From Terriglobia bacterium (GTDB lineage Bacteria; Acidobacteriota; Terriglobia; JAJPHL01): a DNA stretch of 64,000 nt. This document shows positions 1 through 56,504 of the stretch, one piece after another. The position numbers were made by a program, and so were the translations under genes. The notes under the pieces are model-generated. The model saw only the letters and a list, made by a program, of their open reading frames with translations. It ran no database searches and had not been told where the DNA came from. Numbering within the stretch: the stretch's first letter is position 1; every line of letters begins with the position of its first letter. The stretch is from assembly GCA_963747095.1 (NCBI GenBank), contig CAVVEL010000002.1:192697-256696 (forward strand), read 5' to 3'.

Positions 1-1346
1 AGTTTTCTCACCACGCCGAAGGACGCCGGCGATCGTGGACGGTATCGAAGAAGCTGGAGGCCAGGGCACATCGGATGACCTGTTCGGCGGGCCGGTTATG
101 AACCGGTCGATCGAGCGCTACTGGAACATTGAGTTTCGGCCCGAACTGCCGGAAGTCCGAAGGCGAATTCGTCGAAGAATTGCGTGCCTTGCTGGAAGAA
201 TCGGTGCGCTTGCACCTGATGGCGGACGTGCCGCTCGGCGCGTTTCTCAGCGGCGGTCATTGATTCCAGCGCCGTGGTGGCGACAATGGCGCGACTCGCT
301 GCCCGGCCCGGTAAAGACATTTTCGATAGGCTTCAGAGGACGGTTTGCGAGAGCTTCAACGAATTCGAACACGCGCGCGCAGGTGGCCGACACTTTTCGG
401 CACTGAACATCGCGAGCTGATGCTGGCACCGAATGTCCTCGAGTACATTGAGGACATCGCCTGGTATCTGGACGAGCCGTTCGGCGACTCGTCGGCAATT
501 CCCACGTACATGGTTTCAAAGCTCGCGTCAGATCACGTCAAGGTCGTGCTTTCCGGTGACGGCGGCGACGAGTTGTTCGCCGGTTACGAGAAATATCTTG
601 TGGAAGCAGCAGGAGCGGCGCCGGTTCGCTCCCCGCGCCGTTGCGGAAGCTGATCGGGCGTGGCGGCGCAGCTACATTCCGGAAGACGTGCATGGCGCCA
701 ATTTTTTGCGGCACTTGGCGCTCTCCGGCCCCGCCGGCGGTATATCGATCCGAATACCCTCTTCCGCGCATACCAGAAGAAGAACCTGTTCACGCTCGAT
801 GCGGCGCGATGCATGGCTGACTACGATCCCGCGGCCGCCAAAGCTGCGAAGGGTTCGCGGAAGGCGCGGGCGACTGGCTGAGCGCCCTTCAGGTTCAGGA
901 CCTGAAGAGCTATCTGCCGCTCGATATTCTCACCAAGGTCGATCGCATGAGCATGGCGCACTCGATTGAAGCGCGGGTGCCCCTGCTCGATCATAAGCTG
1001 GTGGAATTTGCCGCGACCATCCCGCCGGAGATGCGGCTGAAGAACGGCGTAACGAAATACATCTTGAAGCAGGCCATGCGAGGCATTCTGCCCGAGCGGA
1101 TCATCGACCGGCCCAAGCAGGGCTTCGCGATTCCCCTGGGACGATGGTTTCGCGGGAAGCTGGGAAGCTTTGTCTCCGACCTGCTGTTGTCGCCTACAAG
1201 CCGGCAGCGTGGCATTTTCAACCCCCGATACATCGAGAAGCTCGCCGCCATGCATGCGGCGCGGCCGCAATCTGATGCAGCTATGGACGCTGATCTCCTT
1301 CGAAATGTGGTGCCGAAAGTTTCTCCGGATCAGCCGCGGCTCGAAT
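1..1346 (+). pseudogene. Asparagine synthase (glutamine-hydrolysing) paralog, 5'-truncated by window edge, reading frame switches several times
   Basis: Three frames together reconstruct AsnB motifs (LEESVRLHLMADVPLGAFLSGG; YIEDIAWYLDEPFGDSSAIPTYMVSKLASDHVKVVLSGDGGDELFAGYEKY; SMAHSIEARVPLLDHKLVEFAA...KQGFAIPLGRWFRG) paralogous to the intact copy at 5687..7625; no single ORF spans them. Confidence 0.6.
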
Positions 1347-1385
1347 AGCGCATCACGAACAGGCCGCACAGCGGAGGTGGCCACT

Positions 1386-2571
1386 ATGAAACAACAGCGG
1401 CCGGATCGGCCTGCTGAAGTTGTCGCCGTTTTTCCACTTCGGCGGCACCGAGCGGCAAGTGATGAATCTGCCGCATGGGCTGACCCGGAACGATTCGAAT
1501 TGCACATGGCGCTGCAACGGAAAGTCGGCGAGCTGTTGGAAGAAGCGAACGCGATGGGTGTCCCGGTGACTGAATACCCGATCGACAGTCTCTATAACGT
1601 CCGGTCTCTGCAGGCCCGCCTGCGCCTGGCGCGCTATTTGCGCGAACACTCCATCGAGATGGTGCACAGTTACGGATTCTATTCCAATCTCTTCGCGATC
1701 CCGCGCGCGCCTGGCCCGGCGTTCCCGTGGTTGTCGCATCCATTCGCGATTGCGGAGAGACGCTGACGCCCTTACAGAAGCGCGCCCAGAAAATGTTCTG
1801 TCGCATGGCCGATTGCATCCTGGCCAACGCGGAAGGCGTGCGCCGCTGGCTCATCCGCGAGGGATATCCGGCGCGGAAAATCCAGGTGATTCGCAACGGT
1901 ATCGTTGGACCGGCGCCGGTGGCCGGCGCGCGCCGCGGCTGGCTCCGTCAGGAACTTGGGGTTTCCCCGGACGCGCGGTTGATCGCGGTTTGCTCGCGTC
2001 TGAATCGTATGAAGGGCATAGAATACTTCATCGATGCCGCCGCCGTTCTCGCACCGCTCCGGCCCGACGTTCGATTCCTGATCGTCGGCGGCAACGGTCA
2101 TCGGACGGACGGCAGCTACCAAGGCGAGTTGGAACGCTATGCGGCGAGCCGGGGGCTGGAGAAACGCGTCATCTTCACTGGATTTCGCAACGACGTCGCG
2201 CGAGATGCTTCCGGAAATCGATATTTCCGTGCTGCCGTCGCTGAGCGAAGGCTTGTCCAACTCGCTGCTCGAAGCGATGGCGGCGGGTGTGCCGGTGATT
2301 GCCACCAAGGTTGGTGGAACGCCGGAGTTGGTGGAAGACGGCGCGACGGGCCTGCTCGTTCCTCCGCGTGATTCGGTGGCGCTGGGTCAGGCCATGACCC
2401 TGTTGTTAGATAACCCGGAGACGGCGCGGCGCATCGGCGACACGGCGCGGAGCGACGTGACATCACGCTTCTCCGTTCAACAAGATGGTTCGCGATACGC
2501 AGTCCCTGTACGCCAAACTGCTCAGCGGCAGCCGTGCTCGCATGGGCCACCGAGAGGTGGCCATGTTATGA
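1386..2571 (+). CDS. Glycosyltransferase family 4 (GT1 superfamily), apparent frameshifts near ~1440, ~1740 and ~2487
   Basis: ATG 1386; GT4-like N-terminus (FGGTERQVMNL), EX7E-type C-terminal half (SEGLSNSLLEAMAAGVPVIATKVGGTPELV), typical GT4 ending (RFSVQQMVRDTQSLYAKLL) in a third frame; stop TGA 2569..2571 overlaps next start (ATGTTATGA). Confidence 0.6.
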
Positions 2572-3720
2572 AAATCGTCCTGGTTGGTCCGTACCCGCCG
2601 CCGCATGGCGGCATCTCTGTCCATCTCTACAAGGTTCGCCAGCAACTCCACAAAAGGGGGATCCATTGCCGTGTGGTCAACGTGGATCCCCGAGCCTGGG
2701 AGAGCGACCAATACATCACGGTTCGCGGCGGCATGGGGCTGTTCTTCAAACTTTTCAGTTTTGCCAGAAGAGGATGGACCTCGCACGTCCATACCAACGG
2801 ACACAACATCAAGAGTTGGCTGATTGCGCTGACCGCCGGATTAGCGGGACTGCCGGGGCCAGGAAATGCGCTCACGTTGCATTCGGGTTTAGTGCCGGAA
2901 TATCTTGCGCCGGGTAGGTTCTTTGCACGCGGCCTCGCGCGCCTCTCGTGCTTGTTCTACGCCCGGGTGATTGCGGTATCGCCAAAGATACAGGATGCGC
3001 TGATATCGGCGGGCGTCTCCGCCACTCGGATCATGGTGCTGCCGTCGTTTCTTCCCGCAAGACCTCCGGCCGATCGTTACCCATTACCCACGGCTGAAGG
3101 CCGCAGGCCGATCTTAGGAACCACGCTCTTCTTCCGTCCCGAATATGGTTTCCCGCTCCTAGTTGAAGCGGTGGATCAACTTCGCCGCCGGCATCCCGCG
3201 ATCGCTTGCCTGGTGATGGGCAGCGGCGAGCAGCAGGTTGAACGCCGAACAACTCCTGGCACAGCGCGGGTTGCGAAAGTTCATTTTCTTTCTCGGCAAT
3301 ATGGAGCACGAGAAGTGTCTGTCGGTGATCTCGCAATGCGACCTGTTTGTCCGGCCGGCATTGGCGGATGGCGACGCCAACTGTGTTCGCGAGGCCCTGG
3401 CGTTGGGAATTCCGGTGGTCGCCAGCACGGCGGGCTATCGGCCGGCCGAGGCGGTTTTATTCGAGTCGGGTAATGTGAACGATTTGGTCTTGAAGATCGA
3501 CGAAACGTTGTCGCGACCACTGGCCGTGGCGCCGTGCGGGCCGACCGCCAGCGAATGGGGAGCCGGACTTCGCCTGGATGGCGCCGGCGAATCGGGAGGC
3601 GGACTTCGCCTGGATGGCGCCGGCGCCGGCATCCAGCGCTTGATCGACATTTACGCGTCACTGCAAGAGGAAGGATCCGATGGGAATACTCAGCCGCTTA
3701 CGCCACATGCCCGCTCGTGA
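2568..3720 (+). CDS. Glycosyltransferase family 4, apparent frameshift ~3240; C-terminus carries 1.8 copies of the 36-bp dispersed repeat
   Basis: MKIVLVGPYPPPHGGISVHLYKV start with upstream GAGAGGTGG; C-terminal GT4 half (CDLFVRPALADGDANCVREALALGIPVVAS); repeat translated GAGLRLDGAGESGGGLRLDGAG. Confidence 0.65.
3565..3630. repeat. 36-bp dispersed repeat, ~1.8 tandem copies (reverse orientation relative to 21805..21920), in-frame inside GT4 CDS
   Basis: ggacttcgcctggatggcgccggcgaatcgggaggc x1 + partial; reverse complement of the unit at 21805..21920. Confidence 0.85.
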
Positions 3721-5735
3721 AATCGGATTTCGCTTGCGGGAGCTCGTTCTGCTCGAAACAGAGCGGATCCGGCACGGGCTGAGCTTCGAAGGGTCCGCGC
3801 TGGAAAGCGCGCGGCTGGAGTCCCTCGCGACACGATTCTATATTTCGTCTGAAGAGCGCAAGACGCTGCCGTCCTTCGTGCGAGCTAATTTTCCGGAGTG
3901 GGTCAGGAACGCGATCACCGAAGCCGATGCGCTCTGCGATCATCGCGTGGAGCTGCTGGGTTACGGCACCGTGGAGCTTGACGCACACATCAACTGGCAC
4001 CGCGATCCGGTAACGGGCGTCGAGTGGCCTCGCCGATTTTGGGCCGACTACGATCCCGTGCGGGATCTCGCGCACGGCGATTCGAAAACGATTCATGAGT
4101 TGAATCGCCACCAACATCTGCCGCGGCTGGGCAAGGCTTACTTTCTTACCGGCGACGAGCGCTACGCCATCGAAGCGATCGATCAGATGGAGAGTTGGAT
4201 CGACCAGAATCCGGAAGGCGTCGGCATCAACTGGCAATCGAGCCTGGAGATTGCCATCCGCGCATTGTCTTGGCTCTGGACCATCTTCTTTCTGCTGCCA
4301 TCGCCGGCGTTCACCGATGATGTCTCGCGCCGCGTGAGGCAGTCCCTGTTCGCACAACTCCGCCACGTGTATCGCTATCCGTCGGTTTACAGCAGTCCCA
4401 ATACTCACTTGATTGGCGAAGCGGCGGCGTTGTTCATTGGCGGATTGCTCCTGGACGGGACGGCGGAAACTCGCACATGGCGCGATGTAGGTGCGGACCT
4501 GCTGGTCCGCACCGTTCACGACCAAGTCCTCGACGACGGCGTGCATTGTGAGTTGAGCACCGGCTACCATTGCTATGCCGCCGACTTCTACCTGCAGGCT
4601 TTGATCCTCGCCCGCCGGAATCACTTTGAGTTTGCCCCGGTGGTCGCGCGCAAAGTCGAACACATGCTGGAGTTCGTGATGCACGTCTCCCGAGCCGACG
4701 GCTCCATTCCGCAATTGGGCGACGACGATGGCGGCAGCAGCTCTGGCCCTGAACGCCCAAGATTATCGCTGCTATTCGGACGGTCTCGCGATGGGGGCAG
4801 TGCTTTTCGGTCGCCCGGATTTCAAGTGGCAGTCGCGCGGGTTTCCGGAAGAAACGTTCTGGCTGCTGGGCCGCGACGCCTGCGCCCTCTACGCAACCCT
4901 TCCAGTTACGGAACCTCACGGCAAGAGCCAGGCCTTCCAAGCAGCCGGATATTTTGTGCATCGCACGGGATGGACGGAGCGCGACAGTCACGCCGTATTC
5001 GATCGCGGCGGCATGGGCGCGCCGACCGGCGGTCATGGCCACGCCGATGCGCTGTCGCTGGTGCTTTTTTCCGGCGGCCGCGATCTGCTGATCGATTCCG
5101 GCACTTTTGTCTACAATGGCGCGGCGGAATCGCGCGAATACTTCCGTTCCACCCGTGCCCACAACACCGTGGTGGTGGACGGCCGCGACCAATCGGAGCA
5201 GGCCGGAACATTTCAATGGAAGAGTCGCGCGACTGTGCGCGAGTTGACGCGATCGCCGATTGGCGACCAGACGTCGGCCGGTGAACACGGCGGCTACCTA
5301 CGGCTATCGTCTCCCATATCGCACAGGCGCCGAGTGTCATTCGGCGCAGACGGCGCTTGCGTGGTTGTCGATGAATTGCTGGGCACGGGAGTTCATACCT
5401 TCGATTTTCTCTGCCACTTTCCGCCAGGCGCGGACGTGCAGATTACCTCGGAATCGCCCTTGCGGTTCGAAGTGACGGTGACTTTAGATCACACGGAAGC
5501 GTTGCTGATCCTTTGCACGACGGCTCCGGGCGCAGCGGATGTGATCGAGGGCTGGATTTCGCCTCGCTACGGCCAGCGCAAACTGGCGAGTGTCCTGCGC
5601 GTGAGAGTGACGACTACCGCGCCCTTGTTCGCTTCAACGTCGATCGGGGCCTTTGCCCGGAAAATGGGCCAGAAAGGAGTGGGGCGATGTGTGGAATCTG
5701 CGGAATTGTTAAGTTCGATGTCAACGACTCGGTAG
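3680..5735 (+). CDS. Heparinase II/III-like (alginate-lyase fold) polysaccharide lyase family protein, apparent frameshift ~4730; true stop probably before 5687
   Basis: 534-aa ORF plus continuing 335-aa ORF in another frame; motifs INWHRDPVTGVEWP, NWQSSLEIAIRALSWLW, HCELSTGYHCYAADFY, GHGHADALSLVLFSGGRDLLIDSGTFVYN typical of heparinase II/III-like proteins. Confidence 0.6.
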
Positions 5736-20509: not shown

Positions 20510-21713
20510 ATGACGCCCGCAGCAGCCATCTCGCGCGAGCGTCCGATCTTGTCCGACAAGGTCGAGCTGCCCCTGCGCGTCCAAGCGATCTCCGATTTCG
20601 ATGCATTTCTGAACCTCCAGCCGGCGTGGGACCGGTTGGTCGAAGAAAGCAAGATCGGCCATCCGTTTCTTACCCACGACTGGATCCGCAGTTGGTGGGA
20701 GTCTTTTGGCGCCGGGCGCGCGTTGACCATCGTGATGGTAAGCCGCGGCGGTGAACTGATCGGGATTGCGCCGCTCATGATCTCCCGAACCAAGATCTAC
20801 GGCATTCCCATCCGCGAGCTGGGATCCATCTCTAACGATCACACCCCGCGATTCGATTTCATCATTTCGGGAGAACCGGCATTGGTTATTGGCGCGATTT
20901 GGCGGCATCTTTGGGAGAGGCGGCGAGAGTGGGATGTGATGAAGCTGTGCCAGCTTGAGTCTGGCTCGGCGACGATCGAACAGCTAAGCCGCCTTGCGGG
21001 TGACTGTCGGCTGGAGATTTGGCCGTCTACCGATTCACCGTATCTCTCCGTGAGGGGCGGCTTCGAAGATCACTTGGCGAAACTACCTCGCGGTCTGCGC
21101 GCGAATCTCCGGCGGCGGATGAAACGGCTGGAAGAAATTGGTCCGGTGGAGTTCGAGCAAGTTTCCAGTGAAGAGACGATCGATGACGCCCTGGCCGACG
21201 CCTTCCGCATGGAGACTCGGTACTTGGAAGGGCGAGGCCGGCACGGCGATCGCGTGCCACCAGGAGTTGACTCGGTTCTACGCTGCGATCGCGCATCGCG
21301 CGGCGCAGCAAGGGACACTGTACTTTACCTTCCTGCGTCTCGACGGACAACGCATCGCCTTCGATTTATCGCTGATCTACGACCACAAGCTGTTCAAACT
21401 CAAGCCCGGCTACTTGCAGCGATACCATGCCTGTTCGCCGGGCCAGGAGTTGACCACCATGACCATTCGCGACGCTTTTGCGCGCGGGCTATCGGAGGTG
21501 GACTTTCTGGGATCGGCGGACGAATGGAAGTTGGCTTGGACCAAGACCGTCCGCCAACAGTGTTGGACTTACGTCTTCAAGAAGGATTTGTTGGGATCTT
21601 TGCTGCACTTCGCGAAATTCCGCTTGGCGCCATACGTTCGCAGAACGATTCACGCGAACGTCCGTAGCAAAGTTCGCATCACCATCCGCAAAACACCGGA
21701 GGCGCGCGCGTGA
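20510..21713 (+). CDS. FemAB-related / BioF2-CelD-like GNAT acyltransferase (EPS-locus associated), apparent frameshift ~21200
   Basis: N-terminal half in 385-aa ORF and C-terminal half (FYAAIAHRAAQQGTLYFTFLRLDGQRIAFDLSLIYDHKLFKLKPGY...EVDFLGSADEWKLAWT) in another frame, characteristic of Acetyltransf_6/FemAB-like proteins found in PEP-CTERM/EPS loci. Confidence 0.6.
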
Positions 21714-23005
21714 GGCCAAGCATGTACATTCCACCATGGCCGGGTCCGAGCGCTTCGCAGCTTTCCCTTCACGCCCAGGAGTCGTTGCCCTATCCCCTGG
21801 AGAGCGCCGGCGCCATCCAGGCGAAGTCCGCCTCCCGATTCGCCGGCGCCATCCAGGCGAAGTCCGCCTCCCGATTCGCCGGCGCCATCCAGGCGAAGTC
21901 CGCCTCCCGATTCGCCGGCCGGAAGTTCTTCTACGTCGCGCGCAACGGCATCTATCACTTGTTCCGCGCCCTGGGACTGAAGAGCAGCGAAAACGTGCTG
22001 GTTCCCGATTATCACAGCGGCAACGAAACCAGCGCCATCCGCGCCGCGGGAACATCGATCTGTTTCTACCCGATCCGCCGCGATCTGCAACCGGATCGCC
22101 AAGCCATCGCGCGGCTCTGCACGCCGCAAACGCGCGCGCTCTACGTGATCCACTTCATCGGCTGGCCGCAGCCGATGGGCTGGATCACCGAGTTCTGCCG
22201 CCAGCGCGGACTGTTGCTGATTGAAGATTGCGCACTCAGCTTCTTGAGCGAAGTCAACGGCCGGCCGCTGGGATCGTTCGGCGATTACGCCGTGCATTGC
22301 TTGTACAAAACCTTGCCCGTACCGAATGGCGCCGTTCTGACGGAGAATGGCCCGCCGCTCCGGGAATTGGAAATGCTCAAAACCGTGCCGCCCGGCTTGA
22401 CCTCTGTCCTGGGCCGCTCCGCGGAATTGATTCTGGAATCGTTCCGCAGCCGCTTTCCAGTGTTGGGCGCCCAACTCGCGTCGATGAAATCGTCGGCCGG
22501 TCGCGCGTTGACGGCCGCATCCGTGGAGCGGGAACGCGTCGGTAATATCGGCTTCGACATCGGCAAAGTGGATACGGAAATGTCGCGCGGCTGCCACTGG
22601 CTCCTGGCGCGCTTCCACTACGAACTGATCCGCGAGCGCCGGCGAGCGAACTTCCTGTACCTCGAAGCACTCTTGAGAGGCAAGATGAGCATGCTTCCGC
22701 TGGAGTTAAGCGCCGGCATCTGTCCGCTCTTTCTGCCGATTCTGACGGGGAACAAATCGCTGGTCGCGGAGAAGCTACGGCGGTGCGGAATCGGCGTGGT
22801 CGAGTTTTGGAATGAAGGCGACCCGGCAGCTTGTGGTGCCGCTTCAGAGGACGCTCAATTCCTGCGCAAACACGTGCTGGAGTTGCCGATTCATCAAGGC
22901 GTGACGCCCGCGCAATTAGATTCCATTGCACGCGAAGTCATCGACCATGCGCGGCCTGTCGCCATCGCGATGGAGGAGAGAGCTTCATGCTGCGCAATCT
23001 CGTAA
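21710..23005 (+). CDS. DegT/DnrJ/EryC1/StrS-family PLP-dependent aminotransferase with three in-frame copies of the 36-bp repeat near N-terminus
   Basis: ARNGIYHLFRALGLKSSENVLVPDYHSGNETSAIRAAG...IHFIGWPQPM...YAVHCLYKTLPVPNGAVL (candidate PLP-lysine); repeat encodes AIQAKSASRFAG x3. Confidence 0.7.
   Translation: MRPSMYIPPWPGPSASQLSLHAQESLPYPLESAGAIQAKSASRFAGAIQAKSASRFAGAIQAKSASRFAGRKFFYVARNGIYHLFRALGLKSSENVLVPDYHSGNETSAIRAAGTSICFYPIRRDLQPDRQAIARLCTPQTRALYVIHFIGWPQPMGWITEFCRQRGLLLIEDCALSFLSEVNGRPLGSFGDYAVHCLYKTLPVPNGAVLTENGPPLRELEMLKTVPPGLTSVLGRSAELILESFRSRFPVLGAQLASMKSSAGRALTAASVERERVGNIGFDIGKVDTEMSRGCHWLLARFHYELIRERRRANFLYLEALLRGKMSMLPLELSAGICPLFLPILTGNKSLVAEKLRRCGIGVVEFWNEGDPAACGAASEDAQFLRKHVLELPIHQGVTPAQLDSIAREVIDHARPVAIAMEERASCCAIS
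21805..21920. repeat. 36-bp dispersed repeat, 3.2 perfect tandem copies
   Basis: cgccggcgccatccaggcgaagtccgcctcccgatt x3 + cgccggcc. Confidence 0.9.
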
Positions 23006-26012: not shown

Positions 26013-26551
26013 ATCTGCGGATTTCGACGCTCCCACAGACTCGCGAAAACGTTAGTGAACTTGTGAAGTGGAGTTCTTAAGGGTCCTTGGCCGCTTTCAC
26101 CGAAGCGGCTCCGTTCCTTCATTCAAGATCGCCAAGTAGGCATCGTAGACGAAGAGCCGGTGACGCTGCCGCCCGGTTATCTCCCGGAGCATGCCCAACT
26201 GGCGCATGTGCTCCAACGATTTCGCCACGGTCGGCGCGGAGATACCGATGCTCCTGGCCGAGGCGGGGATGGAGATGATCGGGTTTCGTTGCATGTGTTC
26301 GAAGACCCGCAGCACGGAGGCCGCCGGACGGCCCAAGGCCTGGATCTTGCGATGGTGGTCCTCGAAAACCGCGAGGATTCGGCGGGCAGCGGTGGCGGCT
26401 TGTTCGGCGGTATCCCGGACGCCGGTCAGGAAGAATTCCAGCCAAGTCTCCCACTCGCCCGTTGTTCGCACCCTGTCCAGCAATTCGTTGTAGGCGGGCC
26501 GATGCTGCTTGAAGTAGAGGCTCAAGTAGAGGATGGGTTCCCGCAGCACGC

Positions 26552-26594
26552 CGCCGGCGCCATCCAGGCGAAGTTCGCCTCCCGATTCGCCGGC
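26552..26594. repeat. 36-bp dispersed repeat, 1.2 copies (one mismatch), in-frame inside Fic core
   Basis: cgccggcgccatccaggcgaagtTcgcctcccgattcgccggcac. Confidence 0.85.
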
Positions 26595-26935
26595 ACACAG
26601 CAAGAATGTGATGAGTAACCGGCCCAGGCGGCCATTGCCGTCGAGGAACGGATGGATCGTCTCAAACTGGACGTGGGCCAGCCCGGCCTTGATGAGCAAC
26701 GGGAGGTCGGCCCGCTCGTTGTGCAGAAACAGTTCCAGGGCGCTCATGCATTCGGGGACCAGTTCGGGGGGCGGCGGCACGAAGGCCGCGGTCCCCGGGC
26801 GGGTTCCGCCGATCCAGTTCTGGGTTTTCCGGAACTCGCCGGGCTGTTTGTCGCTGCCCCGGCCCTTCGACAGGAGAACTTCGTGAATCTCCCGGATGGG
26901 CCGCAAGGAGAGCGGGAAGCCCTCGCGGAGCCGTT

Positions 26936-27042
26936 CCAGTCCATGATTCAGCGCCGCAACGTAATTCGAGCATTTAACCGCCTTTTTCCTCTGGTGTTAG
27001 TTCCCGAGTTCCAGTCCATGATTCAGCGCCGCAACGTAATTC
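26936..27042. repeat. 33-bp direct duplication (ccagtccatgattcagcgccgcaacgtaattcg) flanking 41-bp unique insert inside Fic
   Basis: Copies at 26936..26968 and 27010..27042; 74-bp period shifts frame. Confidence 0.8.
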
Positions 27043-27790
27043 GGGACCTCCTGCACGTCAATCAGCGGTACACCCGGCGCTTCGCCGTTTTCAAACAGAA
27101 GCAGGTCGGATAGCAAAGACTGTGTCCCCTCGATCTGGGACGACAGCACCGCCTCCTTGCGAACGTAGGCGTAGATGAAAAGGGACAGGTTCGGCAGTGC
27201 GGAGGCCAAGCCATCAAGCCGTCCGAGGGACTGGTTGGCCTGATCGAGCTGCCGCTGGAGCATCTCCAGGCGCACCGGGGGATCGGGCGGGAGGGGTGGT
27301 GGCACGAACGCCTTGACGGTCTCCGCGCCGTAAGCTTTGACGATGTAGCGGCCCAGTCGTCGCTGGTCCCCTGGCAAAGGCATTAGGTCCTTTCGTTAGG
27401 GTTGGCCTTACGAAAGGATATACCATTTTTGTTTCGTTAGCGATGGCTAGGAAGCAACGGGAACCTTCCTTGCAACCTTCGGTGCTGCCATCAGCCCCTA
27501 ACAGGCCCTTTTTTTGGCCGATTTCGAGACAGTCAGAACACCAGTTGGGTAACAGAACCAGTAGGTTAGCCCCCGAAAGCGTCCCATTTATTTCGAGGGC
27601 GGGGTGTGCGCCGGCGAGCGCTTTATTGCCGTAAGTGTATTTGCATCAATAGGATAACATCCCAGTCTTGACCTTGTATATGGGGTTGGATATGCCATGG
27701 GGTAGGATATGCCACGAGGAGGACCTGCACGACCCCCACGACGGGCCGTCTCCGCTGCTGGGGCCCGGAAAAGGTTCCGGCAGATACACC

Positions 27791-30700
27791 AACTCTCGCT
27801 CATGTGGATCGGATCGCCCCGGCATCTCTGTGATTTCCCGCGCGTACTCCGTCCCACCAATGTTGGAGGCTGTCGAAGTATAGATAAACCACCGGCGTCG
27901 TGTATAAGCGTCAGCAATTGGCTCACGATCAGCCCGCCGATGATCGTGATTCCCAGCGGACGGCGAAGCTCGGATCCTGTGCCGGTTCCCAGCGCCAGCG
28001 GCAAGGCGCCCAGCAGCGCGGCCATGGTGGTCATCAGGATCGGGCGGAAGCGCAACAGGCATGCTTCGACAATGGAGTCGTGGGAGTTCTTGCCTTCGTT
28101 CCGCTCGGCGGCCAGAGCGAAGTCGATCATCATGATGGCGTTCTTTTTCACGATGCCGATCAGCAGAATGATGCCGATGATGGCGATGATGCTGAGGTCG
28201 GTGTGGGTGAGCAGAAGCGCCAGCAGCGCGCCGACGCTCGCCGCGGGAAGGCTGGAAATGATGGTGATGGGATGGATATAGCTCTCATACAGCATCGCCA
28301 GGATGAGGTAGACCGTCACCAGCGCCGCCGCAATCAGGAGCGGCTCGCTGGCCAGCGAGTCCTGGTAGGCTTGCGCGGTGCCGGCGAATTCGGTCTGGAT
28401 GGTGGGCGGAAGCCCGATCTTCGCCGCCGCCGCGGTCGTGGCATTCACGGCATCGCCCAGCGCGACGCCGGGCTTCAGGTTGAAGGAAATCGTCACCGCC
28501 GGAAACAGACCCTGGTGGGTCACCGTCAGCGGCGCGGTAGTGGAGGCGAATTTGGCGAAGGCGCTCAAGGGAACCTGTTGTCCGCTCGGCGAGTTCACAT
28601 AGATCTGCTGCAGAAACAGCGGATTCTGCCAGAACTCCGGCGCCGCCTCCATCACCACGTGATACTGATTCAGCGAGGTGTACATGGTGGATACCTGGCG
28701 CTGGCCGAAGGCGTCGTAGAGCGTGTTGTCGATCAGTTGCGGCGTGATGCCGAAGCGCGCGGCGGTCGCGCGATCGTACTGAATCATGGCCTGCAAGCCG
28801 CGGTTCTGCTGATCGCTGCTCACGTCGGCAATGATCGGAATGGTCTTGAACTGTTCGAGCATCTTGGGCGCAAACTGATTGAGATCGTCCAGATTGTCGC
28901 CCTGCATGGTGAATTGATATTGGGCGTTGCTCTGCCGGCCGCCGACGCGCAGATCCTGCGCGGCTTGCAGGTACAGGGTGGCGCCGGGCACCTTGGCCAA
29001 CTTCGGCCGCAGCCGCGCGATGATCAGGTCGGCCGAGATTTTCCGCTCGCTCGAGCGGCTTGAGCGAGATGAACAGACGCGCCGTGTTGTACGTGCTGCC
29101 GCCCGTAAATCCGTTCACGGTGTCAACGGCCGGGTCGGCGGCGACGATATTGATCATCGGCAGCATGATCTTGTCCATGGCTTGAAACGAGGTGTCCTGG
29201 TCGGCGTGAATCGATCCCTGAATCCGTCCGTTATCCTGTTGCGGGAAAAATCCCTTGGGCACGCGAATGAACAGGTAAACGTTCAGCCCGATCGTGGCCA
29301 GCAGGACCAGCAGCGTAATCGCGCGAAAACGGAGCGCGACGGACAGCGTCCTGCCGTACAGATTCACCACCCAGTCGAAGGCCCGCTCGCTGGTGCGGTA
29401 CATCCAGCCATGGGATCCGTGCTCCTTTCAAGAGATGAGCGCACATCATGGGAGTCGCGGTGAGCGAAACCACCATGGAAACCGCGATGGCGACGGAGAG
29501 CGTCACGGCGAATTCGCGAAACAGGCGGCCCACGATGCCTCCCATCAGAAGCAGGGGAATGAACACCGCAATCAGCGAAACGCTGATGGTCAACACGGTA
29601 GAGCCGATTTCCTGCGCGCCCTTCAGCGCGGCCTCGAAGGGATGCATGCCCTGTTCCAGATAGCGCGTGATGTTCTCGATCACCACAATCGCGTCGTCCA
29701 CCACAAAGCCGGTGGAGATGGTCAGCGCCATCAGCGAAAGATTGTCCAGGCTGTAGCCCAGCAGATACATCACGCCGAAGGTTCCCACCAGCGACACGGG
29801 GACGGCGACGCTGGGAATGAAGGTGGTCCGCGCGTTTCTCAGGAAAACGAAAACCACCAGAATCACCAGCATCACCGAGATGATCAGGGTCCTCTCCGTG
29901 TCGCTGCACGGACGCGCGGATGGTGACCGTTTGATCCATGGCCACCTTCACATCGATCGAATGCGGAATGGAGGATTGAATCTGCGGAAGGACCGCCCGG
30001 ATGCGATCCACCGTATCGATGATGTTCGCGCCGGGTTGGCGGAAGATGATGACCAGAACGGATGGCTTGCCGTTCGCGTAGCCCGAATTGCGAAGGTCTT
30101 CCACGGAATCCTGCGCCTGGCCGACATCGGAGATGCGCACGGCCGATCCGTTGCGGTAGGCAACCACCAACGGCTCATAATCGCTGGCCTTGAAGATTTG
30201 ATCGTTGGCGCCCACTTCCCACATGCGAAGGCCGTCCGAAAAATGTCCCTTGGGCGTATTGGCATTGGCGCCGCTCAAGCACGGTCCGGACCTGCTCCAG
30301 GCCGATGCCATACTTGTTCAGAGCCGTCGGATTCAGCTCGATCCGAACGCCCGGAAGCGAGCTTCCTCCCACGGTCACCTGTCCCACGCCGCTCACCTGG
30401 GCCAGCTTCTGCGCCATGATCGTCGAGGCGGCGTCGTACATCTGGCCCCTGGTGAGGACGGCCGAGGTGAGGGCCAGCATGAAGATGGGCGAGTCGGCCG
30501 GATTCACTTTCCGGTACGAAGGATTGTTGGGAAGATTGGATGGGCAGATAGCCGCGGGCGGCGTTGATGGCGGCTTGCACGTCGCGCGCGGCGGCGTCGA
30601 TGTCGCGGTCCAGATCGAATTGCAGCGTGATGCTGGTGGATCCGAGGGCGCTCGACGAGGTCATCTCGGTGACCGCCGCGATGCGCCCGAATTGCCGCTC

Positions 30701-40766: not shown

Positions 40767-43700
40767 CCCGAGCGTCCTCGCGGCAAAAATGGCTTTTCGT
40801 CGTTGCCACGTTTCTGACGGCGTTCTGTTCCGGCCAAACGTTTAGTGTTTCTCCGACGTCTTTGCACTACTACGGCGGGGGCGGCAACTACCAAAGCATC
40901 TCCATCACGGTCTCCGCGTCGGCAACTTGGACGGTCTCGGCGCCGCCGGCTTGGATCACGCTGAGTCCCAGTTCCGGCACGGGATCGGGCAGCATCTCGC
41001 TGGTGGTAGCTGCGAATACGCCGAGTGCGTCCAGGTCCGCCACTCTCAATGTGTCCTCCGGCAGTACGTCCATCCCCGTGACGATTAGCGAGGATGCTCT
41101 GGCTTCAGGCCCGCCATCGGTTGGGCTGGTGAATACACCCTCCGGTGGCAGTTTCCCGCTGCACTCCACGCAACAACTGCTGAAATTTCGATTCGACAGT
41201 CCCAACGGCCCCGACTACCTGGCCTGGACGGCGATCGTGATCAACGATTACTTGAACTGGGACGACGGCTGCGTCGCGGCGTTCTTGCCGGTATATGACG
41301 CGTTCTACCTGCTGAACGGCGAGACTTGGACCCCCTACACACTGGGGTCGTCGGGCCAGGCCGTCAGCACGCATTGCACGATTGACTTGGGTTCCAGTGG
41401 CCCCGTGGGAAACGGAGCGGGAACTGGTTATGAGTTGGACCTGAATGTTACTCTCCGGCCCTCGGCCGTGGGACAACAGTTCATCTGGTCCGACTCGATT
41501 GATGTTGCCAATGGTACAACCGGCTGGACCAACCTGGCCAACTGGACCGCCTACGATTGGATCACCAACCCCGTTGCTCCCACCGTGACGGTACCATCGC
41601 TGCCGGCGATTGCCACGCAGACCGTCCACGCCACCGTGACGGACGGAAACGGCTACGTGCATATCGATGCGATCACGGGACAAGTGGTACGGCCAGGCAC
41701 GAGTGGCAGCGGTTGCTACTTCAGCATCGATCCGCGCACCAAGACGCTAACGCTGATCGCCGTTCCATCCGGCAGCACGATTGGTTCGGGAACGCTGGGC
41801 AGCAGCGGTGTCCTGGCGGCCAGCGGGCTGTGTTCGCTGGATTTAAGCTCCTCGCATCTTCACGCCAATCCCGATTGGACGCAACCGGACCCCGACCCCA
41901 ACGCGGCGGTGTATCCCAACTGGTATGTGGATCTGGCATGGACGGCGCCAGCCGCCCTTTCTTGGCCGCTGGGCATTACGGTTGTGGCCTACGACATTGA
42001 AACATCGCTGAACAATTATGCCGTGGCGACCTGGGGCGGGCCGACGATCAGCCAGAGTCCGGCTTCGCTCAGCTTCAACGCCACCGTGGGTGGCGCCAAT
42101 CCGGTGCCCCAGACGATCGCGGTCACCAATCCCGGCGCGGGATCGTTGGCCTGGACTGCGGCGGCGAGCACCGGTGCCGGCAATTGGTTGTCCGTTTCAC
42201 CGGCGTCGGGCACGAACGCTGGCACGTTGACCGTAACCATCAACACCGGCGGTCTCGCCGCGGGCTCTTATACGGGGGCCATCACCATTTCATCCTCGGC
42301 GGCGGTCAACTCGCCGCAGACGGTGCCGGTGAGTTTGACGATGTCGAATCCCGTGCCGACGGTGACTTCCGTGAGCCGGGTTCGGTCTCGGCCGGTTCGG
42401 CTGCCTTCACTCTGACGGTGAACGGCACGGGCTTTGTACCCACCAGCAATGTGCTATGGAACGGGTCGAACAGGACGTCGGCTTATGTGGGCCTCAACCC
42501 AGGTGACAGCAGCGATTGCGGCGGCGGACGTGGCGGCAGCAGGTTCAGGCAACGTGACGGTAACCAATCCTGCGCCGGGTGGTGGAACGTCGAGCGGCGC
42601 GAGTTTCGCGATCAATAATCCCTCGCCGACAGTGACTTCGCTGTCTCCCACGTCTACGACCGCCGGATCGGCGGCCTTTACGCTGACCGTCACCGGGAGT
42701 TCGTTCATCTCCAGTTCCCAAGTGCAATGGAACGGAAGCAATCGCACGACGACTTACGTGAGCGCCACGCAGTTGACGGCGGCGATCACGGCGGCGGATG
42801 TGGCCTCGGCCGCCTTGATTCCGGTGACCGTGGTGAACCCCTCGCCAGGCGGCGGGATGTCAACCGCGGCCTCGTTCGCCATCAACAATCCGGTGCCCAC
42901 CTTGGCTGGGATGTCCCCCGCCTCTGCGAATGCCGGGGCGGTAGGTTTCACACTGACCCTAACTGGCGGCGGATTCAACTCCGAGTCGCAGGCCCAGTGG
43001 AATGGCAACAATCGTCCGACCACGTACACCGGCTCGCAATTGCTGGTGGTGATTTCAGCAGCCGATATTGCGTCGGGCGCCTGGGTTCCGGTGACCGTGG
43101 TGAACCCCGGACCGGGCGGCGGAGCATCGAGTACCCGCGACCTTTTTGGTCTACAATCCTGTGCCGACCTTGGGCGCGATTTCACCCTCCTCGACCAATG
43201 CCGGCTCAGCTGGCTTCAACCTCGCGGTGACTGGAAGCAATTTTGTTCCCGGCAGCATCGTGCAGTGGAATGGATCGGCGCGGACGACAGCCTACGTGAG
43301 CTCCACTCAGGTTAATGCGGCGATTACGGCAGCGGATGTCGCTACCGCTGGCACCGAAGCCGTTACAGTGATCAATTCAGGGCCCGGTGGCGGCACATCG
43401 AGCTCCACAACGTTGACGGTCAACAATTTCGCACCAACAATGGGCTCCGTCTCACCAACCAGTACGAGCGCCGGCTCAGCCTCTTTCACCCTGACGTTGA
43501 CGGGAACCGGCTTTGTGACGGGTAGTACGGTGCAGTGGAACGGATCGAACCGCACGACGACATATGTGAGTTCAACCCAACTCACGGCAGCGATCAACGC
43601 AGCGGACGTAGCCTCTGCGGGCACCGTGTCAGTGGCCGTGGTGAATCCGTCGCCAGGCGGCGGAACGTCAGCTCCGGCGACGTTTGCTATCAACAATCCC

Positions 43701-46700
43701 GCACCAGCCATTAGCACAATTGCGCCTGCGTCAACCACGGCTGGTTCGACAGCCTTCACGCTGACGTTGACGGGAACCGGCTTTGTGACGGGTAGCACAG
43801 TGCAGTGGAATGGATCGAACCGAGCCACGACTTATGTGAGCTCGACCCAGCTCACGGCGGCGATCACTGCGGCGGACGTAGCCTCTGTGGGCACCGTGCC
43901 AGTGGCCGTGGTGAATTCTTCGCCGGGCGGAGGACCATCGACTCCCACAACGTTCACAGTCAACAGTCCCGTGCCTTCCGTGACTGCGCTCGCCCCCAGT
44001 TCTACTACGGCTGGTTCGACAGCCTTCACCCTGACGTTGACGGGAACCGGCTTTGTGACGGGTAGTACGGTGCAGTGGAACGGATCAAACCACACCACGA
44101 CATATGTGAGTTCAACCCAACTCACGGCAGCGATCAACGCGGCGGACGTAGCCTCTGCAGGCACCGTGCCGGTGGCCGTGGTGAATCCGTCGCCGGGCGG
44201 CGGAACATCAGCTCCGGCGACGTTTGCCATCAATAATCCCGCACCAGCCATTAGCACAATTGCGCCTGCGTCAACCACGGCTGGTTCGACAGCCTTCACC
44301 CTGACGTTGACGGGAACCGGCTTTGTGACGGGTAGTACGGTGCCGTGGAATGGATCGAACCGCACCACGACATATGTTAGTTCGACCCAACTCACGGCAG
44401 CGATCAACGCGACGGACGTAGCCTCGGCCGCTACAGCCTCCGTGACGGTTATGAATTCCACACCCGGGGGCGGGACGTCAACTCAGGTGACGTTCACGAT
44501 TAACAACCCTGTGCCGGCTATTGCCTCGCTGAGCCCAACATCTGCCACGCCGGGTGCAGCCGCCTTTACCCTCACGGTGAACGGGACGAACTTCGTGCCG
44601 AGCAGTGTGGTGAGATGGAATGGTAGCAACCGCACTACGACCTTTGTAAGCTCGACCCAGCTCACGGCAGCGATCACGGCTGCCGACGTTGCGACTGCCA
44701 CTACGGCCTCCGTGACAGTTATGAACGTCGCCCCGGGCGGCGGGGCCTCGGGCGGTTCGTCGTTCACGATCTTGAATCCGGTTCCCGCACTCGCCGGGGT
44801 ATCCCCGTCATCGGCGGCGGCTGGGTCGACTGGCATGACTCTGACCATAACTGGTAGCGGGTTCAATTCCAGTTCAGTGGTGCAGTGGAATGGCAGCCCT
44901 CGCCCGACCAATTTATCTGTCTCCCAGTTAGTGGCGTTGATCTCCGCGTCCGATCTGAGTACGCAGGGCTACGCGTCGGTGGCTGTGTTTAATCCGGCAC
45001 CGGGCGGCGGCACGTCTCCGAGCTACTCGTTCCAGATTACCAGTGCGAATCCTTTGCCTGGGATATCTTCCATCTCTCCGAACACGGCTCCGCCGGGATC
45101 GTCCGCTTTCACCCTGACGGTTACCGGCATTGGGTTCATCTCCGGCTCGCAAGTCCTGTGGAATGGCAGCCCGGTCACTACAAACTTCATCAACTCCTCG
45201 ACAAGCTTGACGGCAAGTATCAACGCCAGCCTTGTCGCCAATGCCGGCATTGCCAACGTATCGGTTTCGAATCCCACGCCGGGCGGCGGAACCTCCAGTA
45301 GCCTCACGTTCAACATTAGCACCCCCAATCCCGCGCCAGCGGTGACCTCGCTTTCTCCGGCTTCTATTGCGGCGGGTTCCGCCGCCTTTACCCTGGCAGT
45401 GAACGGAAGCGGGTTCAACTCCAATTCGCAGGTGCTGTGGAATGGCGTCAGCAGTCTCTCCATCAACGAAGGCAACAGCAGTTCAACCCAGTTGCAGGCC
45501 ACGGTTCCGGCCGCGAATGTCGGCGCGGGCGGCACGGCGTCGGTGACGGTGTTCAATCCCACACCGGGGGGTGGTACATCAACCGCTCTGACGTTCACAT
45601 TCAATAATCCTACGCCGGTAATGAGCGCGATTTCACCGTCCACGACCACCACTGGTTCCGCGTTCACCCTGACGGTGAACGGAACAGCCTTCGTTACGAA
45701 CAGTACCGTGCTGTGGCAAGGATCGCCGCAGCCGACGACATATGTGAGCGGGACACAGTTGACGGCTGCGATCCCCGCGTCACTGGTGGGGCTCCACAGG
45801 TGCAGCCGCGATTACGGTCACGAACCCGGCGCCAGGCGGCGGAACCTCGGCTCCGCCACCGTCAACATCAATAATCCTGCACCCACGTTGGTTACCATCT
45901 CGCCGGCTTCCGCACTGCCGGGATCGGCTTCCTTCTCTCTAACGGTGAACGGAAGCGCTTTCACCACGAACAGCGCGGTGCAGTGGAATGGCTCGAGCCG
46001 CCCGACGTCGTACGTCAGCGCCACGCAATTGACGGCATCAATCGCGGCGTCGGACATAGCCTCGGCCGGCACGGTCCTTGTGACCGTGTTCAATCCCACA
46101 CCGGGAGGTGGTACTTCGGCCAGCCAAACGTTCACGATCGCCAGTGTGAATCCTACACCGGTGATCGGCAGCATCTCGCCGGTTTCCGCCACGGCCGGAG
46201 CGACTGCTTTGACGCTGACAGTGACTGGCAGCGGGTTCATCTCCACTTCACAGGTGATGTGGAATAATTCCAGTCTCACTATCACCTCCACCAGCCCGAC
46301 CCAGTTGCAGGCGACCATCCCGGTTGGCGATCTCGCTGCCGCCGGCAGTGCTACGGTGTCAGTGGTGAATCCCACACCTGGTGGAGGCACCTCGGGATCG
46401 GCGACCTTCAACATTAGCGCTCCTGTGGTCCTCAGCAGCATATTGCCCACCTCTGCCGTGGCGGGGTTGACCGGCATTAGCTTGGTAGTGAACGGCAGCG
46501 GGTTTACCTCCTCTACGCAGGTACAGTGGAACGACAGCGACCGCACGATCACCTCCTTCACCGCCACTCAGTTGCAAGTACAGATCACAACAGCGGATCT
46601 GGCCACGGTAGGCACGGCCCGCGTATCGGTCACGGGCGTATCGAACAGCATGGCGTTCATGATCGGCAGTTCCGTGCCAACGCCCTCGAGAGAGTACATC

Positions 46701-54798: not shown

Positions 54799-54844
54799 AT
54801 GTGCTAGGATAATCCGAAATGCATGATGCATTTTCAAAAAGACG

Positions 54845-55417: not shown

Positions 55418-55445
55418 GTCACTGCCCCTCACGGAAGGTTGATGG

Positions 55446-56046: not shown

Positions 56047-56067
56047 TCTGCGTAGTCACTTTTCTCA
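56046..56067. repeat. REP-like element GGACAGCCTGATCTGCGTAGTC at 3' end of truncated RAYT copy
   Basis: Same 22-mer as 56986..57007. Confidence 0.8.
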
Positions 56068-56420: not shown

Positions 56421-56432
56421 TCCGGAGAATGG

Positions 56433-56504
56433 GGTCGGCCTGGAGTTGACGATTTCTTTCTGAGCAACTGTCGAAAAAAACAATCCGTCAAGTCCAGGCC
56501 GACC
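56433..56504. repeat. Long hairpin: 19-bp inverted repeat (GGTCGGCCTGGAGTTGACG / CGTCAAGTCCAGGCCGACC, 1 mismatch) with 34-nt loop, at truncation point of RAYT copy 2
   Basis: Followed by ccattgcc(c/a)t x3 tandem. Confidence 0.75.

Follow-up and report, generated by a model that had tools for sequence, protein, structure and literature searches.

A 36-nt repeat that occurs at three places in a 64,000-nucleotide stretch of Terriglobia DNA (the window) is probably a dispersed, non-autonomous mobile DNA repeat of REP/RPE-like kind, belonging to a Bryobacterales-type acidobacterial lineage. Its copies are dispersed, are present or absent in a lineage-specific manner, and arose through independent insertions with a net gain of 36n bp and no target-site duplication. 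They also show a target preference, array behaviour, and a filter on both their position and their reading frame.

Repeat units in the window

Six full 36-nt units were recovered from the window by a pattern search that tolerated up to three mismatches (Table 1), confirming the three places named by the first-pass annotation. The same search of 100 dinucleotide-preserving shuffles of the window found no match to the unit, and the chance expectation for the three sites is zero. When the window was searched to 11 mismatches, the unit was absent beyond the known sites.

TRF reported a period of 36 with 3.2 copies and 100% matches at 21805-21919, in agreement with the tandem count first given for the DegT array, and 2.2 copies of the same period at 3546-3625. 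For the GT4 array the reverse orientation originally described holds, but its extent (3565-3630, about 1.8 copies) needed correction to that in Table 1 and to 2.2 copies; the roughly 1.2 copies placed in the Fic gene correspond to one unit and its terminal heptamer. Each site is closed by such an extra CGCCGGC (degenerate in GT4), which leaves GCCGGC on both sides of the array.

Table 1. Repeat copies, host genes and a separate Fic insertion, in window coordinates.
Feature	Position	Strand	Description
DegT array	21805..21919	+	Three perfect 36-nt units and terminal CGCCGGC; in-frame (AGAIQAKSASRF)x3 near DegT N-terminus
DegT units (three)	21805-21912	+	0 mismatches each
GT4 array	3547..3625	-	Two units and degenerate terminal CGCTGGC; GAGLRLDGAGESGGGLRLDGAG in C-terminal linker
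GT4 unit	3590-3625	-	0 mismatches
GT4 unit	3554-3589	-	2 mismatches
Fic copy	26552..26594	+	Single unit, T variant at position 24, and terminal CGCCGGC; translated on the minus strand as GESGGELRLDGA, between Fic-motif helix and PILYLS segment
Fic unit	26552-26587	+	1 mismatch
Host gene 1	21722..23005	+	DegT/DnrJ/EryC1-type aminotransferase, apparently intact; start placed at conserved MYIPPWP
Host gene 2	2568..3720	+	GT4 glycosyltransferase, frameshift near 3235
Host gene 3	26097..27383	-	SoFic-type Fic_N + Fic + HTH protein, interrupted by in-frame TAA
Second Fic insertion	26933..27041	-	Separate event, outside the repeat family

The element consists of a 28-nt core, CCATCCAGGCGAAGTNCGCCTCCCGATT, between two copies of the 8-nt palindrome CGCCGGCG. 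The unit with both of its ends forms a 44-nt imperfect palindrome with hairpin stems of 8, 3 and 5 bp, and the DNA fold of this segment (dG -15.6 kcal/mol, z -3.5) was equalled by none of 200 shuffles; the GCCGGC bounds and the hairpin initially proposed are thus real. Each position of the core is 97-100% conserved, the last loop nucleotide excepted. All six frames of the tandem unit were checked and are free of stop codons, as had been observed, but the significance attached to this property did not survive: it is shared by 26% of shuffles of the unit and by 17% of random 36-mers from the window, and its reading as a special adaptation was rejected.

The three hosts do come from unrelated families, with the domains DegT_DnrJ_EryC1, Glycos_transf_1 and Fic, but they are not all the intact coding sequences first supposed, since two of the three (GT4 and Fic) are broken elsewhere in this assembly. 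The frameshift splits the GT4 gene into ORFs 2139-3473 and 3238-3720, and the in-frame TAA of the Fic gene comes from a second, unrelated 75-bp insertion. Apparent frameshifts also affect heparinase, acetyltransferase and AcrB genes of this region. In that insertion a 37-nt unique insert (26971-27007) lies between the copies of a direct target duplication (34 bp exact, 38 bp with one mismatch). The 37-nt insert was also considered as a phage-derived spacer, and a search of viral contigs and phages gave no match.

Insertion into host genes

The blocks in Fic (36 bp) and DegT (108 bp) are lineage-specific insertions, given that orthologues 85-94% identical lack them. All nine Fic orthologues in that range of identity are without exactly the 12 residues GESGGELRLDGA, and the DNA of two of them has a clean gap of 36 bp. 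Compared with the solved structure of SoFic (3EQX), the block is again inserted sequence. Ten DegT orthologues lack the 36 N-terminal residues, no more and no fewer; the window array is absent from orthologues P0153-P0183 and from contig L073, with a DNA gap of 108 bp. This relative (L073/P0153) carries an independent 72-bp, two-copy insertion at a different DegT position, and insertion must therefore have occurred repeatedly. In relatives of the GT4 protein, whose identity reaches 52% at most, the place of the array is taken by no more than a short variable linker.

In an AF2 model of DegT the insert has a pLDDT of 43-59, against more than 85 over most of the remaining protein, and is predicted to be disordered. 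Of the two outcomes that the first-pass annotation named as refuting, blocks shared by orthologues were thus not observed. A further filled and empty pair, L079/L083, differs by a net gain of 36 bp, and in a larger intergenic hairpin the element has been inserted into either arm, at GCCGGC.

Occurrence beyond the window

A scan of genome contigs yielded one true copy, in a Terriglobia MAG (L001), and soil and peat metagenomes yielded 81 loci, about 74 of them genuine. Seven metagenome matches are not the element (L011, L018, L020, L032, L006, L015 and L030), the first four being MoxR ATPase genes with 24 nt in common with the unit. There are 86 non-identical sites, which together hold 106 copies. 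The named orthologues belong to Bryobacteraceae/Bryobacterales, in addition to the Terriglobia affiliation of L001. A 33-nt variant keeps the termini and has a different centre.

Among database proteins, 31 from unrelated Pfam families carry 1-4 copies; between them they use each of the six frames, and so contain six peptides unrelated to one another; many of these copies sit within enzyme domains. The metagenome contigs are 1-9 kb long and may be chimeric at the repeat, as in L053, where an apparent frame-breaking insertion proved to be a chimeric contig with a PFOR gene joined to a TPR gene at the repeat. The unit was absent from IMG/VR, and a viral origin was rejected; no Rfam family matches the unit or the larger hairpin.

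Position and reading frame

Of the 86 sites, 61 (71%) lie in predicted ORFs with the frame kept, 23 are intergenic and two overlap gene ends, with genes on the short contigs called by a crude in-house program based on codon usage. The second outcome named as refuting, copies mostly intergenic or out of frame, was therefore not observed either. Sites deep inside a coding sequence make up just 24% of element sites, compared with 49% of unoccupied GCCGGC sites (p = 2.7e-4), so that gene interiors are depleted of copies two- to three-fold and gene ends and intergenic DNA are enriched. There is no preference for coding sequence. The RPE-like reading of the first-pass annotation therefore holds for behaviour, that is for in-frame insertion, but not for a preferential colonisation of coding sequence, with gene interiors depleted and about a quarter of copies intergenic.

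An orientation bias is present in each frame class, with ESGGGLRLDGAG favoured 22 to 9 and PAPSRRSPPPDS 20 to 7, and the copies have no overall strand bias. Avoidance of Arg-rich frames by selection was also considered, but most of the pattern follows from the frame that GCCGGC occupies within genes (213/125/50). The orientation bias within frame classes is the sole remaining frame-related signal of selection.

Junctions and arrays

The junction logo has a graded GCCGGC on both sides, and conservation falls off gradually outward with no step, upstream positions 3-8 being fixed by the search pattern itself. Some 20-30% of downstream junctions differ from GCCGGC. Across 75 sites, deviations at the upstream junction vary independently of those at the downstream one, so that there is no target-site duplication; on these 75 sites neither such a duplication nor insertion into a longer palindrome already in place did better than shuffled expectation.

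The targets that could be resolved are merely GCCGGC-like, namely CGACGGC in L073 and TCCCTG/TGCCGG in L083/L079. The upstream palindrome in L073 is perfect, and the downstream junction retains the A of the target. In two filled and empty pairs the junctions are nearer to the palindrome in the filled allele than in the empty one. Several placements of the element boundaries fit the five resolved pairs.

All 17 arrays are head-to-tail, and there is a single head-to-head pair, in L084. Sizes range over 1-3 or more units that abut directly at a period of 36, and the internal junction and variant bases are common to the units within one array. Copy number differs even between near-identical proteins (P0004 versus P0017, P0021 versus P0025).

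Mechanism of insertion

Every event brings a gain of exactly 36 bp at a site resembling GCCGGC, with the element in one orientation or the other and no target-site duplication. In the simplest form, a 36-nt GGCG-core-CGCC would be set into the centre of GCC^GGC, which would regenerate GCCGGC at both ends. Local tandem duplication (slippage) then lets single copies grow and shrink into head-to-tail arrays. An insertion within a gene adds a 12-residue block without destroying the gene, because 36 bp is 12 codons and no frame contains a stop. Selection then retains copies where the block is tolerated, at protein termini and in linkers and loops, and also retains the frames that encode Gly/Ser/Pro-rich peptides. 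We infer that the most likely agent would be a hairpin- and ssDNA-recognising HUH Y1 transposase of the RAYT/TIRYT type, acting in trans. An Acidobacteria-specific clade of TIR-associated Y1 transposases has been described (PMC3733652).

Neither a transposase nor any further candidate enzyme was seen beside any copy, the metagenome contigs being only 1-9 kb long, and this would also suit a process with no dedicated enzyme. The donor's two CGCCGGCG palindromes would then pair with a solitary CGCCGGCG-like site and the 28-nt core between them would be copied, through replication template switching or a microhomology-mediated, gene-conversion-like event, with slippage afterwards giving the arrays. 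Such copying is possible, though we do not consider it probable. It is consistent with the lack of target-site duplication, with the gradual outward decay of palindrome similarity on both sides, with targets that need only resemble GCCGGC, with filled alleles that have better palindromes than empty ones, and with a net gain of exactly one period every time; indeed, short-homology copying accounts for the gradual decay and the improved filled junctions no less well than precise transposition does. However, ectopic copying would hardly be efficient with homology as short as 8 bp, and template switching should give inserts of variable length rather than 36n alone. Conservation of the whole core across many genomes, one loop base aside, resembles protein recognition, and the two improved-junction cases use orthologues 80-94% identical, in which ordinary divergence can explain the difference (p about 0.04 for L079/L083).

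A more far-reaching reading, which we regard as unlikely, is that the element represents a previously unrecognised minimal type of mobile element: a codon-phased 36-nt hairpin, open in all frames, whose 8-nt palindrome pairs with GCCGGC-like sites without target-site duplication and possibly without a dedicated transposase. It would act in free-living soil bacteria as a natural 'linker-insertion mutagen' that adds disordered blocks of 12 residues.

Retention for a function at the DNA or RNA level is decidedly improbable, whether the repeat served to bind a protein, to signal uptake or recombination, to end transcription or stabilise mRNA through its hairpin, or to allow, through inverted copies, a programmed inversion of the 18-kb EPS segment that separates GT4 from DegT. 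High conservation with the sole variable position in the hairpin loop would be in keeping with such a function, as would the enrichment at gene ends and in intergenic DNA and the 79-81-nt inverted arms (3546-3626 and 21804-21884), which are 96% complementary. But presence and absence differ between close relatives, orthologous sites are without conserved copies, and many copies lie within enzyme domains; uptake-signal-type motifs, moreover, originate by substitution and not by 36-bp insertion. As to inversion, the sequence flanking DegT is collinear between the window and L073, a contig without the window array, and there is no sign that the segment has been inverted.

Still more improbable is excision of the 36-bp fragment by a host GCCGGC-specific endonuclease (NgoMIV/NaeI type) and its reinsertion by ligase, singly or as concatemers, even though the unit length is exactly the GCCGGC-to-GCCGGC distance, inserts occur in both orientations and in tandem, and most junctions are GCCGGC. 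The non-GCCGGC downstream junctions and the resolved targets in L073 and L079/L083 speak against it, as do arrays that are nearly always head-to-tail where palindromic sticky ends predict random orientation, and GCCGGC occurs in this DNA at close to its expected frequency (observed/expected 0.91). A 12-residue protein module selected for function in its carriers, as the tandem in-frame arrays of variable copy number, like those of surface-protein repeats, might suggest, is effectively refuted by the use of one DNA in six frames to give six unrelated peptides in unrelated enzymes, and further by the intergenic quarter of copies, the close orthologues without inserts and the predicted disorder of the DegT insert.

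With an element just 12 codons long, the range of selfish palindromic DNA within genes is extended from the reduced intracellular genomes of Rickettsia (RPEs) and a small number of species rich in REPs to Acidobacteria that live free in soil and peat. The element is a tractable system, being small and sharp in its consensus, with GCCGGC as a recognisable target and many filled and empty allele pairs. It could reveal by what means repeats of such small size are mobilised and how far proteins accommodate random insertions of 12 residues, since every copy that survives marks a permissive protein site. The repeat also breaks or chimerises short-read assemblies (many copies are at contig ends, and L053 is chimeric) and inflates ORFs at gene starts. 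In-frame copy-number polymorphisms could be used for strain typing.

Relation to known systems

The unit differs from a CRISPR array, in which unique spacers separate the repeats, in that its copies abut at a period of 36. Tandem copy number varies at a locus as in an in-frame VNTR produced by slippage only, but about 80 unrelated loci carry the unit, which occurs in either orientation and in six frames. Like a MITE it has terminal inverted repeats, with CGCCGGCG at both ends imperfectly extended to GGCGCCATC / GATTCGCC; unlike a MITE (about 70-300 bp) it is 36 nt long and lacks a target-site duplication of fixed length. Transposition of IS200/IS605 elements proceeds without target duplication, depends on hairpins, uses a short specific target and can move non-autonomous derivatives in trans. 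These elements are a mechanistic analogue only, the acidobacterial element being ten to fifty times smaller, with no TnpA gene seen and with a palindromic target present on either side of the insert.

The small dispersed repeats (SDRs) of heterocystous cyanobacteria are reportedly about 21-27 nt long, far below MITE size, and are said to look mobile, to make no target duplication, to be nested in other repeats and to occur occasionally in genes. The acidobacterial element resembles them in all of these behaviours, but belongs to another phylum, has another sequence and uses a palindromic hexamer as target; to our knowledge SDRs have not been described as codon-phased units free of stops in six frames. 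PARCELs share with it tandem in-frame coding repeats, dyad-symmetric DNA, a copy number that varies, and a spread both within genomes and from one genome to another. They are, however, a 25-residue protein motif that forms dedicated, mostly membrane-targeted ORFs of unknown function, whereas the acidobacterial unit is a DNA element found in any frame, in ordinary enzymes and in intergenic DNA.

Closer parallels are found among REPs. Intragenic GTAG-/CGTC-tagged REPs are imperfect palindromes of 20-40 bp present in many copies (Di Nocera et al. 2013; PMC3733652), often close to one of the protein termini, with dimers that encode 20-30 aa, and REPs are thought to be mobilised in trans by Y1 HUH transposases, RAYT/TIRYT (PMC3733652). 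The acidobacterial unit is likewise an imperfect palindrome that forms a stem-loop, with some copies within genes. It nevertheless contains no GTAG, CTAC, CGTC or GACG (the criterion of PMC3733652), and its arrays are direct, head-to-tail and without spacer, unlike the inverted dimers of REP/REPIN; those are also predominantly extragenic, in contrast to the 71% of acidobacterial sites in predicted ORFs. Neither the unit nor any of its six peptides, nor the larger hairpin, was matched in full-text literature searches, as the first-pass annotation had anticipated, but the phenomenon is less unusual than it implied, intragenic REP-type repeats being already documented in several phyla (PMC3733652).

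RPEs are 100-150 bp long (PMC1779305) and, as RPE-1 to RPE-10, are interspersed between genes and in frame within genes in obligate intracellular Rickettsiales (PMC1779305, PMC3733652). The acidobacterial repeat is similarly a multi-copy palindrome, both intergenic and in frame within genes, that has proliferated in a lineage-specific manner in host proteins otherwise conserved, with inserts outside the folded core. It differs in its unit of 36 nt (44 with ends), its head-to-tail arrays of 12-codon period, its GCCGGC target and its free-living soil and peat hosts. The element is thus RPE-like in behaviour only and, set apart by size and host, is not a member of the RPE family.

Lineage-specific insertions

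The first-pass annotation described a 36-nt unit at three sites, and CGCCGGCGCCATCCAGGCGAAGTCCGCCTCCCGATT is indeed present at the positions given in the table, with no match to it in 100 dinucleotide-preserving shuffles and no additional copy in the window when up to 11 mismatches are allowed. Comparison of filled and empty alleles shows that insertions of exactly 36n bp have occurred repeatedly and lineage by lineage, this being the net gain in five of five comparisons (Fic, the DegT N-terminal site, a C-terminal site on metagenome contig L073, contigs L079/L083, and hairpin arms). In nine Fic orthologues of 85–94 per cent identity, among them named MAG proteins of Bryobacteraceae and Bryobacterales, precisely GESGGELRLDGA is absent, and two of the nine show a clean 36-bp gap at the DNA level, at TGT-GCGGGCGGCGTG and TGC-GCCGCCGGCGTG. 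Exactly 36 N-terminal residues are missing from ten DegT orthologues (64–86 per cent identical), and the 12-residue blocks are insertions, as the annotation had supposed. In GT4 relatives (at most 52 per cent identical) a short variable linker stands in place of the window's 24 extra residues.

A fragment, P0028, has an array at the same DegT site, every copy with T at unit position 24, and the DegT encoded on contig L073 (P0153) is empty there and carries an independent two-copy insertion near the C-terminus, where the window DegT is empty. When Fic is compared with the solved structure of SoFic, its block falls between the helix of the Fic motif and that of PILYLS. AlphaFold2 modelling of DegT (mean pLDDT 84.7) gives the insert 43–59 and most other residues above 85.

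Features of the window and copies of a larger hairpin on contigs outside it (L numbers)
Feature	Position	Strand	Detail	Source
Three perfect tandem units	21805–21912		DegT; then CGCCGGC to 21919	
Two units, one with 2 mismatches	3554–3625	minus	GT4	
One unit, 1 mismatch	26552–26587		Fic; then CGCCGGC to 26594	
DegT_DnrJ_EryC1	21710/21722–23005			Pfam
Glycos_transf_1	3238–3720			Pfam
Fic	26097–26906			Pfam
Fic_N	26997–27383		own ORF apart from Fic	Pfam
Second Fic insertion, 75 bp	26933–27041	minus	lineage-specific; without counterpart in orthologues	
GT	about 2200		apparent frameshift/truncation	
Heparinase II/III	about 4720		apparent frameshift; N and C domains on overlapping ORFs	
Acetyltransferase	about 21150–21250		apparent frameshift/truncation	
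Asparagine synthase			fragments, within apparently damaged gene regions	
AcrB			remnant, profile positions 645–1010	
Group II intron	53447–54064		D1–D4 53447–53672; domain V/VI 53990–54064	Rfam
Larger hairpin	L008 520–604			
Larger hairpin	L049 2585–2674			
Larger hairpin	L055 829–955			
Larger hairpin	L058 367–460			
Larger hairpin	L071 1199–1245			

Distribution beyond the window

When 185,579 species genomes were scanned for exact 21-mers, three of the hits were chance matches and one was a true copy, which lies at a membrane-protein N-terminus, in a third reading frame, in a Terriglobia MAG (L001). The same type of scan gave 81 loci in metagenome contigs, of which seven were rejected as the element, and with the window included there are 86 non-identical sites holding 106 copies (69 single units, 14 doublets, and 3 triplets), many of the sites lying at contig ends. 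Decayed copies were almost absent from a profile search, and viral contigs held no unit copy.

Four of the rejected loci are MoxR-type AAA ATPase genes (L011, L018, L020, L032) with 24 nt identical to the unit's 5' half (GCCGGCGCCATCCAGGCGAAGTTC), encoding AGAIQAKF. The bacteria of these contigs are unrelated, and the match is probably chance amplified by orthology, although it could be a clue to the unit's origin. Contig L053 (1380–1900) is chimeric or rearranged at the very position of a two-copy array, joining an upstream PFOR N-terminal domain to an unrelated downstream TPR protein in a different frame, which shows that the unit misleads short-read assembly or mediates recombination. Several ENA metagenome contigs still end in Illumina adapter sequence (AGATCGGAAGAGC...), which directly follows a unit copy in L024 (about 1860–1925) and at the end of L042.

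A protein search with a synthetic concatenation of all six unit translations found 31 proteins with one to four copies, and all six frames are represented; five unit peptides occur in database proteins, whereas L001 has the one ORF with the sixth, IGRRTSPGWRRR. The carriers belong to unrelated families (among them NMO, NrtR-like protein, MsrA, Memo, PFOR, GMP synthase, SIS, PrmC, YdjC, PilZ, trypsin-like proteases, and a phosphatase), a Pfam domain is split by the block in some carriers, and copy number varies between near-identical proteins (P0004 versus P0017, P0021 versus P0025).

Relation to coding sequence

The tandem unit has no stop codon in any of six frames, as first described, but this hardly distinguishes it: the property is shared by 26 per cent of unit shuffles and 17 per cent of random window 36-mers (the window is 60 per cent G+C), and is therefore a precondition for intragenic survival rather than a mark of adaptation. 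By a crude codon-usage gene finder, 61 of the 86 sites lie in predicted ORFs, against a predicted coding fraction of 86 per cent for the same DNA. In a calibrated flank test, both flanks were coding in one open frame at 15 of 62 element sites (24 per cent) versus 167 of 339 unoccupied GCCGGC sites (49 per cent; Fisher p = 2.7e-4) and 47 per cent of random positions, while a single coding flank was enriched at element sites (52 versus 35 per cent). Genes thus tolerate the element, preferentially towards their ends, and it does not seek them; of the suggested RPE-like colonisation of coding sequence, the RPE-like behaviour stands but gene-seeking does not.

The copies retained show a bias in position and in the peptide they encode. 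The six frames are used unequally (ESGGGLRLDGAG 22, PAPSRRSPPPDS 20, AGAIQAKSASRF 9, NREADFAWMAPA 7, and two Arg-rich frames 2 and 1), a pattern that largely tracks the frame of GCCGGC in genes (213/125/50). GCCGGC itself is neither over- nor under-represented in this DNA (observed/expected 0.91). One orientation is favoured within each frame class while strands balance overall (31 versus 30), which points to a filter on the encoded peptide.

Anatomy, junctions and mechanism

The hairpin noted at first pass is borne out by the 44-mer, the unit with both ends included, which folds imperfectly with stems of 8 + 3 + 5 bp (dG −15.6 kcal/mol, z −3.5). Its 28-nt core is conserved at 97–100 per cent per position except at unit position 24, the last loop base (T 56, C 33, G 10, and A 7 copies). 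After ...GATT the flank reads C93 G95 C86 C88 G78 G79 C69 (per cent) and is random beyond, the upstream flank being its mirror.

Insertion occurs at GCCGGC-like sites in either orientation and without a TSD. Targets range from perfect GCCGGC down to the merely similar CGACGGC and TCCCTG, and at 75 sites upstream and downstream junction deviations are independent under both a direct (TSD) and an inverted (pre-existing palindrome) model, so that there is no target duplication, and insertion into a pre-existing palindrome is unsupported. Most economically, a 36-nt GGCG-core-CGCC would be set at a GCC^GGC-like centre and would recreate GCCGGC at both ends, other cyclic permutations fitting the pairs equally. 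Since copies of one array share the same internal junction and variant bases and lie head-to-tail, arrays grow by local duplication.

The putative agent favoured here is a Y1 HUH transposase that recognises hairpins and ssDNA and acts in trans. Enzymes of this class insert without a TSD, recognise hairpins, and have short, specific targets, and a TIRYT clade specific to Acidobacteria has been described (PMC3733652). The main rival is copying without an enzyme, by short homology of the terminal palindrome to a lone site that resembles it, and the graded junction conservation and two 'improved junction' cases favour this rival. Spread by restriction and ligation fails on targets other than GCCGGC and on head-to-tail arrays, and six-frame usage excludes a function at the protein level.

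In contig L084 (939–1012) a variant of 33 nt, identical in its termini but not in its centre (CCGGCGCCATC-TAGCGCTCGCGCCTT-CGATTCGCCGG), lies head-to-head with a canonical copy, one ORF reading through both (…AGAIQAKSASRFAGESKARALDGAG…), which suggests a wider family defined by the element ends. The window's GT4 (3546–3626) and DegT (21804–21884) arrays form 81-nt inverted arms, 96 per cent complementary and 18 kb apart, that flank a polysaccharide gene cluster. Inversion between them could occur; the DegT flank bears no sign of it and is collinear with a relative without the array.

Host genes and neighbouring repeats

Two of the three host genes are broken in this assembly. GT4, which starts with the ATG at 2568, shifts frame near 3235, as confirmed against its relative P0273, and in Fic an in-frame TAA, located in a second, unrelated insertion, separates Fic_N from Fic. 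That insertion comprises 37 nt of unique sequence (26971–27007) between direct copies of the target, which agree over 34 bp exactly and over 38 bp with one mismatch. With an insert the size of a spacer and a duplication the size of a repeat, it resembles ectopic CRISPR spacer integration; the 37 nt had no match among viral contigs and phages. Neighbouring genes are apparently split as well (asparagine synthase, a second GT, heparinase II/III, acetyltransferase, and AcrB), so that, with GT4 counted, at least six genes seem frameshifted or truncated (window 420–5735, 20510–21713, 27588–29000). This may reflect an indel-prone assembly or true decay of the genes in this region.

A larger dispersed repeat takes the form of an intergenic hairpin that is long and near-perfect (AGTGGCGCGGGCATCCTTGCCGGCG - loop - CGCCGGCAAGGATGCCCGCGCCACT; dG −47 kcal/mol), with a perfect 33-bp stem in L049 and nothing resembling it in Rfam or a literature search. 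Several intergenic unit copies lie within it at GCCGGC of either arm, its inner GCCGGC sites being landing sites for the unit. Another palindromic family, of about 85 nt, is common to contigs L034, L043, L009, L077, and L063 and matches in both orientations. A further dispersed palindromic motif (AAAAGAGACTACGCAGATCAGGCTGTCC) comes right after the group II intron and again at 54850, 56020, 56980, and 57100; in the same region (54064–57133) 200-bp duplicates, 96 per cent identical, lie at 54207 and 56175. At 42386–46560 about 15 tandem 270-bp (90-aa) repeats lie within a single ORF of very large size, whose product is presumably a surface protein built of repeats, with Ig-like domains.

Comparison with known systems

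A full-text literature search for the unit, its six peptides, and the larger hairpin returned nothing. The phenomenon is not categorically new; its interest is that of a very small, codon-phased mobile repeat of free-living Acidobacteria and a tractable model system. In behaviour the unit matches Rickettsia RPEs and the intragenic REPs of Di Nocera et al. (PMC1779305, PMC3733652), yet it is a member of neither. RPEs are 100–150 bp (PMC1779305) whereas the unit is 36 nt, and the REP superfamilies differ from it in their GTAG or CGTC tags, mostly extragenic location, and inverted dimers (PMC3733652). From MITEs it is set apart by a size far below theirs and by insertion without a TSD.
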